Assembly: GCA_951406725.2 (NCBI GenBank)
Contig: OX597829.1
Coordinates: 25,358,001 to 25,422,000 of the forward strand
Length of the DNA: 64,000 bases
Origin: Octopus vulgaris
Lineage: Eukaryota
Direction of reading: 5' to 3'
Under the pieces are notes generated by a model. The model did not search any database. It was not told the DNA's origin and was given only the letters and a program-made list of their open reading frames with translations. The translations under genes and the position numbers were made by a program. Within the stretch, counting starts at the first letter, position 1; every line of letters begins with the position of its first letter. Below, piece by piece: positions 10,201 to 13,200 of this stretch.

Positions 10201-13200
10201 ATTGTCATTATCATCATCACCATCGACATAGAGTCTTAAACTGTCCATTAATTTACTATCAGGAGACTGACCCTCTCATTTTGCTTAGATTATAGCAGAA
10301 AAATAAATATATACTCCATTTTTAAACAACTACACATGGTTGAATTAGTAACCAATTATAATAAAAGGAATATATTCATTCAAATACATCAAACACAATT
10401 CAAAGGAGTAAGAGAAAGTTGTAGCAAAAGAGTCAGCAGAAGTTCACCATTACCTTCTGCCAGAACCACATGGAACTTAGGTGCTTTGCTCATAAACACA
10501 TACACCACCCGGTCTGAGATTTGAACCCACAATCCCTTGACCACAAGCCTTTTTAGCAAGGCAACAATAGGCAAGTGTTAATAATTATAAGAAAAGCAAT
10601 AATCACTTCCAATTTAGGCAGAGGGTCAGCATTTTGAGCAGAGAGTGTTAATTGATACCACTGACTCCAGTATTTGACTGCTATTTATTTTTACTGTGAC
10701 TGGAAGGATAAAAGGTAAAGCTGACTTCAGTGGATTTTGACCTCAGAATGCAAAAACCCAGAAAAAGTATTGTTAGTTCCTTTGACATTGACTCACCCTG
10801 CACCACCCATTATTCTAATGATACAAACTTCCTGTTTTAAAGTGAGTAAAATTGAATTTCAGAAATTTCATGTTAATTTATCTTCCAATCTTTGGCTTAA
10901 TACTGATGAAGATATTTTACTAAAGTCATCATTATTATGAGAATTAATTGAAACAAAGGCAGTGTAATTCAACAGAAACATAATAACAAAAGGATTAAGC
11001 ATTTTGTCTGACCCTCTAACGATTCTACCAATCATTTACATTATTTACAATTGACAGATATTTGTCCTCATCTTTCGGCTGATATACCCTCCAGCCTTCA
11101 TTAAGTGTCTTGGGGGAAATTTCGAACCTGGGTTCTCATTCTTAGGGTATTTTTCGATATTATTATTATTATTATTATTATTCAGGTGGCTGCTTGGAAT
11201 TGAACTCAGAATCTTGGGGTTAGTAGCCCGCACTCTTAACTACAGCACTATATGCCCATGGGCATAGAGTGTAGTGGTTAAGAGTGCGGGCTACTAACCC
11301 CAAGATTCTGAGTTCGATTCCTAGCAGTGACCTGAATAATAACAACAACAACAACAAGAACAATGACATCGAAAAATATCTTAGGAATGAGAACCCAAGT
11401 TCGAAATTTCTCCTAGACACCTGATGAAGGCTGGAAGGTATATCAGCCGAAACGTGTTAACAACAAACAAGATAAGGACAAATATCTGTCAATTGTAAAT
11501 AATGTGCATAATTCCTCATCTCTTAAATATAGAACTGGATTCTACCAATCCACTGCCTGAAAACACCATGAGAGAATGCTGATTTGTTTGTTCCTTCTTG
11601 AGCCATGACTGGCTCATAAGGGCCAGTTTCCCAGTTTCATTGGCATATAGGTTCCCCCACCTTGATGGGATGCCGGTCCATCATAGGTGAACTGCTAGAT
11701 GCAGGAAGAAAGAGTAAGAGAAAGTTGTGGCAAAAGAGTCAGCAGAAGCTTACCATTACCTTCTGCCAGAGCCATGTGGAGCTTAGGTGTTTTGCTCATA
11801 AACACATACACCAACCCAGTCTGAGATTCGAACCCGCTGCTCTAATCACTAGGCCATGTGCCTCTAAGAATGCTGATTTACTACTATGAAATATTCCAGT
11901 AACATCAAATAAAATTTGACTAATTTGTATAGAATCGCTTACAGTGTTATTTCCTCTCTCTATCACAACTAAAATGGCTTCTACTTCTTGGAGTTAGCTG
12001 AGTCCATGTCAACTCCACTCAGGCATTACTTACCCACTCCCTCTCCTCCTTTCAATACTCAGTCTGAGTTTCACATTAACTCCTAGTCCTAATCCATTCT
12101 ATCTAGAATATTGACCCCATAAAACCTTACCCATGGTTTTTCCTGTAGGTGTTAACTTGCAGTCCCACCTTAAGAAAACATTAATGGCTTCAATCTCACC
12201 AGTCCCAAGGGGATATTGAAAATGATGGGTACCACCCCATCCTCCAGATCCAGCAAGTAAAGACAGAAAAAGCATCAAAAAAGAAAAAAAACAATTTACA
12301 AAAATGTTGAAGAATAATTCAATAATTATTGTACAAAAGTATTGGTTATTACCTCATATAACACACACATATATCAAGATACACCTGATGGCTTATTCAA
12401 TACATGACTGTATGAATAAGCTTCCAATACAAAACTTGGCAGTTCCACTTAACACAACCTTTATAATAAATCTGACTCTACTTTCAATATTGCGTCTCCT
12501 CCATCATCAGTAAATGTTTTGTGGTTATTCTTAAACTTGCATTAAAACAATCTTATTTTAACACACACACACACACACACACACACACACTTACTCACTC
12601 ACTAACTCAGTTTTGTTGAGGTGAGCAAATCTTCTTGAGGACTACATATCACCAGTCATCCAGATCCTTTATCATCTTCTCCATGAGGTTCAAGGTCCTG
12701 AGATCGAACTTTATGACTTTGCCCCTCATCTTCCTGGATCTCCCTCTTCTGCAAGCTCCATCCACATTAAGTGATTGGCACTTCTTTATACAACTGTCCT
12801 CATCCATACACATCACACGTCCATAATAGAACAATCTTCTTTCTTGCACATTACATCTGATTTCTCTAATGCCTAGTTTTGCACTCAGCACATTTATACT
12901 CTGTCACTGGTACACAGATATTGGAGAAAGCTCGCTTCATTTCTTTCCAGTCTTCTCATCTCCTCTACATTCAAGGCCTATATCTAACAACCATGCAGCA
13001 TAACCATTCTAACACCATCAACTAACAGTCATTTTTCCATACTGGCAAGCCAAACTCTAATCTGTTTTAGCATGGTTTCACACCAGCCACTTTACAGAGT
13101 GTACTGGATGTTTTTCATGTGTCACCAACACTGGCAGAGGCACTGAGTAACTCACAAGACAAAGACCTCTCGACTAAGAGGGAGAGAAATATTGAGGGCG

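Follow-up and report, generated by a model that had tools for sequence, protein, structure and literature searches.

A palindromic insertion in the window, the 64,000-nucleotide stretch of the Octopus vulgaris genome analysed here, is best read as an inverted pair of pseudo-LTRs (pLTRs) of a ~2.8-kb Penelope element, whose tRNA-Arg-like pLTR head is probably an internal Pol III promoter. The palindrome itself is not a mobile unit; it arises as a side effect when Penelope inserts.

Anatomy of the insertion

The feature is a 504-bp palindrome. Its arms carry tRNA-Arg-like heads, an (AAT/AAC)n stretch and a hammerhead of the minimal type I, and a tail of ~28 bp is present on one side. Its arms are 80–91% complementary around a centre at 11258/11259, and its 13-bp TSD (GATTCTACCAATC) is 100% identical between the left (11021..11033) and right (11538..11550) copies, in agreement with the original prediction. 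The left arm (11034..11258, minus strand) is an inverted pLTR copy without a tail; its decayed hammerhead has two core changes and a 21-nt deletion that spans the predicted cut at 11072/11073. Both arms meet at a fold-back junction (11253..11265), at a 5-bp inverted microhomology that is a natural part of the Penelope element's head start. The right arm, on the plus strand, opens with a tRNA-derived head (11260..11332) similar to the genome's tRNA-Arg, with an A box at 11267-11277 (three mismatches relative to the family majority) and a B box at 11310-11321, followed by an (AAT/AAC)n spacer (11335..11366) whose length differs from copy to copy. An ATG at 11387..11389 is the inferred start of the RT ORF, being in frame with that ORF in the full-length element and upstream of the ribozyme cut. 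In the right-arm hammerhead (minimal type I, 11416..11458), 3 nt are missing where the cut is predicted, between 11453 and 11454, and the tail (~11510..11537) is found on the right side only; its sequence is the join between the 5′ pLTR and the ORF body in full-length copies. The earliest T4 on the right-arm strand lies at 11790, 253 nt beyond the tail. The spacer between head and hammerhead, the tail at one end only, the right arm free of T4 before the ribozyme and the want of a perfect ribozyme in the window arms had all been noted beforehand and held.

A second palindromic insertion of the same family (14927..15395) supplies the other two of the four arms in the window: a tailed pLTR arm on the minus strand (14927-15199) and a tail-less arm on the plus strand (15219-15395) with its head deleted. 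Pieces of another tRNA-type SINE lie on either side of the element on the minus strand (10507-10528, 11814-11835 and 12057-12072).

An Rfam scan, the check originally suggested for the hammerhead, came back negative, with 0 hammerhead and 0 tRNA matches in the window and in two better-preserved copies; ARAGORN called no tRNA in the window. A true tRNA gene was rejected as the identity of the head. A MITE or DNA transposon was ruled out by the one-sided tail, the variable arms and the RT partner, and a miRNA by the low score of its mir-885 match, 28 bits where 66 are required.

The arm is the pLTR of a Penelope element

The same genome contains a ~2.8-kb Penelope element, with RT and GIY-YIG, that has the ~280-bp arm as its pseudo-LTR. 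A decayed RT-endonuclease ORF found upstream of copy L014 served as search query. At 22 of 30 ORF-end loci, a set that includes the query's own locus, the stop codon is followed by 29 nt and then by the tRNA head; the other 8 were not aligned (5 near-identical loci ended earlier and 3 were ambiguous). At the element's 5′ end, a unit in direct orientation joins the ORF in 7 of 25 loci, and in one of them (L101/L124) this 5′ unit starts at the head. With a head following the ORF end and a 5′ unit leading into the ORF, the arm can be identified as the pLTR. The full-length layout is head, (AAT)n, ATG, hammerhead and tail, then RT, GIY-YIG, stop codon, 29 nt and the same repeat, with a spacing of ~2.5 kb between the repeats. 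The frame of L124 stays open over 219 codons, beginning in the pLTR and crossing the hammerhead, and similarity to homologues starts around the tail; the tail is therefore the start of the conserved coding region, as described likewise for Drosophila Penelope (PMC2377424).

The single ORF contains an RT domain (RVT_1, E 5.5e-10), and the element protein has 1,178 homologues at E ≤ 1e-30, the closest at 60–72% identity. Its C-terminal half is 39% identical to homologue P0097 across the Pfam GIY-YIG (PF01541) stretch of the latter; the decayed copies gave no direct Pfam GIY-YIG match. The family thus combines an RT ORF, GIY-YIG, direct and inverted pLTRs, a one-sided tail, partial tandems and a hammerhead in the pLTR, the features of EN+ Penelope-like elements (PLEs). 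Its motifs suggest that it belongs to the Penelope/Poseidon group. Of the 150 ORF ends with the best scores, none was intact (the longest measured 569 aa), and the family appears inactive today. A genome search with Pfam GIY-YIG led to other PLE families, with the unit in 0 of 30 fetched loci, and the viral contigs searched held no relative of the element. An unrelated young PLE family of this genome (L037, L042 and related loci) has many intact 781-aa ORFs, T4 runs and a different pLTR.

Mobilization by a Penelope RT/GIY-YIG enzyme, as originally proposed, is borne out by this autonomous partner, and the suggested comparison of hammerhead and tail with an autonomous pLTR succeeded, as both match the ~2.8-kb element's pLTR and its ORF join. 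The proposal of a separate non-autonomous family found no support: the autonomous element has the entire unit, with its head, as pLTR, and the variant sites of solo arms also vary in ORF-linked arms.

Family size and insertion pattern

We searched the 2.8-Gb genome (227 contigs) for exact 22-mers and counted 7,993 matches mid-unit, 4,931 in the head and 693 at the ORF end ~105 nt upstream of the head. As only 30 of 64 independently found arms carry the mid-arm 22-mer exactly, we estimate ~17,000 arms in ~10,000 insertions. An unbiased sample, comprising 99 of the first 100 position-ordered exact matches to this 22-mer, represents 88 insertions, 57 of which have an inverted partner of variable length. 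Palindromy is thus common in the family, not universal. Of the pattern that the original prediction asked to be tabulated, the inverted partners were frequent and a flanking repeat of 9–14 bp occurred in 15 of 27 tailed arms examined, the shortest of which may be chance; palindromy did not extend to every copy. The 3′ ends of the 99 arms are bimodal, lying at the tail end or 25–33 nt inside it. Divergence in the family is ~6–7% (non-CpG 7%, CpG 24%), and the element is also present in contigs from sequencing runs of two other organisms.

Nearly all copies are solo or inverted, with direct tandems at L161 and L202. At L161:1475-2071 (oriented), three head-less units, each with a hammerhead, stand head to tail as a retrozyme-like array born from a Penelope pLTR. 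At L013:1380-1900, ~60 nt past the tail is present on both arms in inverted orientation and matches the UTR of another PLE family (L058), reflecting either transduction or an inverted target duplication. A small contig (G000:C31) carries many near-identical truncated copies, probably amplified along with a segmental or satellite repeat.

A tRNA-derived head at the start of the pLTR

Compared with 30 tRNA loci of six amino-acid types, the head (copy L013) best matched the genome's tRNA-Arg TCT/TCG (47–48 of 73 nt), with A and B boxes aligned in register. The 5′ ends of arms pile up at its start. Among 68 head-mapped arms (the counts leave out the 31 of 99 sampled arms without a mappable head), 12 stop at 21–53, 45 at −14..+18, 0 at −15..−45 and 11 further up, corresponding to stop rates per 10 nt of 0.053, 0.223, 0.032 and 0.021 and a pile-up 4–10 times the neighbouring intervals. 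Thus, 45 of the 56 arms that reach position 20 stop at −14..+18, mostly at −7..+4, around the tRNA start, which points to an RNA starting there; many heads begin at this site without a fold-back. Longer or circular templates also existed, since 11 of 68 arms and the partial tandem L374 extend upstream of the head. The tRNA-type head with A and B boxes is therefore as first described, and its predicted promoter role gains from the pile-up: transcription of the short copies by Pol III is likely to have begun at the head. In 80 distant relatives no tRNA head adjoins a hammerhead; five A/B-box matches occur elsewhere, four with T4 or longer directly behind, and ARAGORN with relaxed settings gave noise only.

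T4 runs on the coding strand

Over ~2.7 kb of the coding strand (372 copy segments, depth at least 14), we found no T4 run shared between copies; 15 T3 runs are shared. The proportion of T-runs reaching four was 0 of 15 in the family versus 342 of 1,286 (27%) in 63 related ORFs (P about 0.01). Relatives carry T4 near the hammerhead in 12 of 14 cases, and 0 of 20 relatives of at least 1,700 nt have zero T4 in the ORF; their runs fit the shuffled expectation (342 observed versus 325). Codon shuffles of two natural segments predicted ~4 T4 runs (P(0) 0.003–0.006), with one private run seen (P(≤1) 0.04), and another PLE family in the same genome has 7 T4 runs in 1,794 nt. Single decayed copies gave P of 0.05–0.07, and copy L129 has 4 T4 runs. 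The test concerns one lineage only, at P 0.003–0.01. G4 is also absent from the coding strand (0 of 14), an absence common in relatives (6 of 20). With its coding strand free of T4, the whole element could, less certainly, be read by Pol III as well; we regard Pol III transcription of the full-length element as possible and lean slightly against it.

Hammerhead motif and the deletion at its predicted cut

The hammerhead reconstructed in the original prediction is, by column counts, the majority state over the 99 sampled arms, of which 8 are perfect, and is minimal type I with a palindromic stem III family-wide. Like PLE minimal hammerheads, it has an additional base ahead of stem II, and its stem III is palindromic as theirs is (PMC4209133). 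N7 is the single core position polymorphic beyond CpG decay (T 69, A 25), a position that the hammerhead tolerates, yet also a third codon position. Related PLEs have the same core layout with different stems (sense matches numbered 19 in 80 loci, and five shuffles gave 0); as the search descriptor required pairing, these matches speak for the layout and do not amount to covariation statistics. Stems I and II form in a natural perfect copy, but its minimum-energy monomer fold, which mispairs the core, is not the catalytic fold. Processing by the hammerhead, as first envisaged, cannot be what releases the short copy, which spans the predicted cut.

At the predicted cut, a deletion has removed 3 nt from 15 of 131 unbiased arms and from 40 of 265 arms overall, compared with 10 of 6,689 site-copies (0.15%) at comparable ORF sites with 2-nt microhomology. 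The deletion preserves the reading frame, abolishes the ribozyme and is equally frequent in both N7 backgrounds. Among 68 palindromic pairs it affects both arms in 2 and one arm only in 12, and so arises per arm; the N7 variant, by contrast, is shared between paired arms (P 5e-6). A rival reading is DNA slippage, for which the neighbouring AAC repeat, having lost 3 nt in 9 of 267 arms (3%), offers a precedent. We consider the deletion a likely scar of hammerhead cleavage in vivo, its simplest reading being a jump of the RT over cleaved RNA by way of a 2-nt overlap; in vivo cleavage by the family hammerhead is plausible on these counts. Separately, N7 differs (T versus A) between the arms of 7 of 61 palindromic pairs, which suggests that two distinct RNA molecules, of the kind a ribozyme dimer would provide, went into some of the insertions.

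RNA-seq

In two RNA-seq runs, the ORF end and pLTR were covered on both strands about equally (the libraries may be unstranded), a pattern consistent with host read-through that says nothing on Pol III. Palindromic junctions were present among the reads. No discrete transcript starts or ends appeared in the two runs, which consist of short reads over a multicopy repeat. At L072:1900-2620, A>G and T>C variants occupied 20–24 places in RNA runs versus 9–13 in two contig runs, a hint of A-to-I editing of palindromes, with individuals and organisms differing between the runs.

Proposed mechanism and alternatives

We propose that Pol III would begin transcription at the tRNA-derived head and yield a ~280-nt template, from the 3′ repeat, from solo repeats or as the 5′ end of a long RNA, for the element's RT/endonuclease. 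Priming at the tail end would copy one arm, and a second priming 25–33 nt further in would copy the inverted arm; both copies would end at the RNA start, where the short hairpin would form their junction, and a TSD of 9–14 bp would remain. The hammerhead, acting as a dimer, may cut only a fraction of the RNA, and RT crossing a cut would often drop 3 nt. Less certainly, full-length Pol III read-through would regenerate both repeats and the promoter. In its furthest form this becomes an autonomous 2.8-kb coding retrotransposon that Pol III transcribes end to end from a captured tRNA promoter. Such an element would have been purged of T4 and would be translated from an RNA that is uncapped or circular; its terminal repeat would be shed as a SINE driven by Penelope, with copies that keep a record of hammerhead cleavage in vivo. 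We put this picture forward tentatively and with some doubt.

The insertions might instead be ordinary Penelope debris. On this account the 3′ UTR once received a tRNA-derived SINE and has carried it ever since, the RNA came from Pol II or host read-through, and RT stalling at the hairpin or tRNA fold made the 5′ pile-up. Inverted pLTRs with a one-sided tail of 30–40 bp, along with 5′ truncation, are standard PLE anatomy (PMC8557442), the natural hairpin at the head start is often the junction and could, like the tRNA fold, stall RT, some templates extend upstream of the head, and the RNA-seq has no strand bias. Yet RT reads through the head start in 11 of 56 arms, the hairpin plays no part in many of the ends at −7..+4, and the stop falls at tRNA +1, not within the more structured head; nor would debris lead one to expect a pLTR and ORF without T4, given the runs in relatives. 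We consider this account unlikely. Less probable still is a SINE-retrozyme that is independent and non-autonomous, has master copies of its own and borrows the enzymes of Penelope; the ORF-linked copies would then be chimaeras. Solo arms do outnumber ORF-linked ones by ~7 to 1, every intact solo arm has the promoter and a terminator-free path to the tail, and the L161 array is a triple hammerhead tandem without heads; against this, the head stands at both ends of the autonomous element, each of three variant sites tested varies among the 58 solo and the 10 ORF-linked arms alike, no haplotype confined to solo arms is evident, and divergence is similar in the two groups (6–7%). Under the preferred reading, in which the arm is a Penelope pLTR with a probable Pol III promoter, solo-to-solo copying is possible in addition to copying from the autonomous element.

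With its thousands of copies, the family makes the PLE life cycle measurable, including the promoter, the role of the hammerhead and the origin of the tail and inverted repeats. It shows how a SINE-like element can arise directly from the terminal repeat of an autonomous element, its partner a Penelope and not a LINE. The per-arm deletion at the cut may be genomic evidence of in vivo cleavage by a minimal PLE hammerhead, for which such evidence was described as lacking (PMC4209133). A Pol III origin of the long RNA, if true, would go against the stated view that Pol II is required by coding retrotransposons (PMC10886601), and how an uncapped RNA gets translated would become a question.

Comparison with known systems

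The original prediction had not recognized the combination as a described class. Its joining of a Pol III promoter to a hammerhead is known, from the schistosome Sm-alpha and Sj-alpha SINE-like elements, which likewise carry a Pol III-type promoter and then a hammerhead (review PMC6765202); what stands is that no tRNA-headed pLTR or Penelope-driven SINE was found in the literature searched, with most subscription journals, Repbase, Dfam and SINEBase outside reach. The available portions of PMC13282606 and PMC3531059 mention no such element. As described in the same review, Sm-alpha and Sj-alpha are tandem multimers released by the ribozyme, with no partner named in the part available (PMC6765202), whereas the octopus unit spans the cut, inserts solo or inverted and belongs, as pLTR, to an autonomous element identified here. 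Animal non-LTR retrozymes consist of short units with a hammerhead; these are relatives of PLE pLTRs and are presumed to rely on PLE enzymes (10.64898/2026.07.22.740005; PMC7229834); the words 'tRNA' and 'promoter' are absent from the preprint's main text as available (10.64898/2026.07.22.740005). They are defined by head-to-tail tandems of hammerhead units, which are rare in the octopus family, nearly all of whose copies are solo or inverted.

TRIMp3 elements (Cassandra, Helenus and Ajax) also have a small-RNA-derived Pol III promoter within the terminal repeat (PMC10886601). They are short non-autonomous LTR elements with PBS/PPT LTRs, a 4–5-bp TSD and no ORF, whereas the octopus family has a TSD of 9–14 bp and an ORF, and its head sits on the autonomous element itself; the autonomous partners of TRIMp3 are held to require Pol II and to be unlikely to share the repeat (PMC10886601). 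The Octopus SINEs OR1, OR2 and OK have tRNA-derived heads, as does the octopus pLTR, and OR1 and OR2 are cited as CORE-SINEs (PMC4758252, PMC4824008). Unlike OR1 and OR2, the unit has a Penelope pLTR as its body, a distinction drawn from their description that allows for a shared head. With SINE2 the family has in common the tRNA-derived A/B-box head; it is not a distinct non-autonomous lineage with a LINE partner, its partner being a PLE.

The nearest counterparts are the EN+ PLEs with a C-terminal GIY-YIG, which share the single RT-EN ORF, the pLTRs, the inverted truncated 5′ copy, the partial tandem, the one-sided tail at the ORF start and the minimal type I hammerhead (PMC8557442, PMC4209133, PMC2377424). 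The Penelope promoter studied resembles TATA-less LINE promoters and overlaps an intron (PMC2377424). Unlike these elements, the octopus pLTR opens with a tRNA-derived A/B-box head, has a sharp pile-up of 5′ ends and belongs to an element whose coding strand is without T4. The octopus family is a new variant of Penelope element, not a new non-autonomous class.
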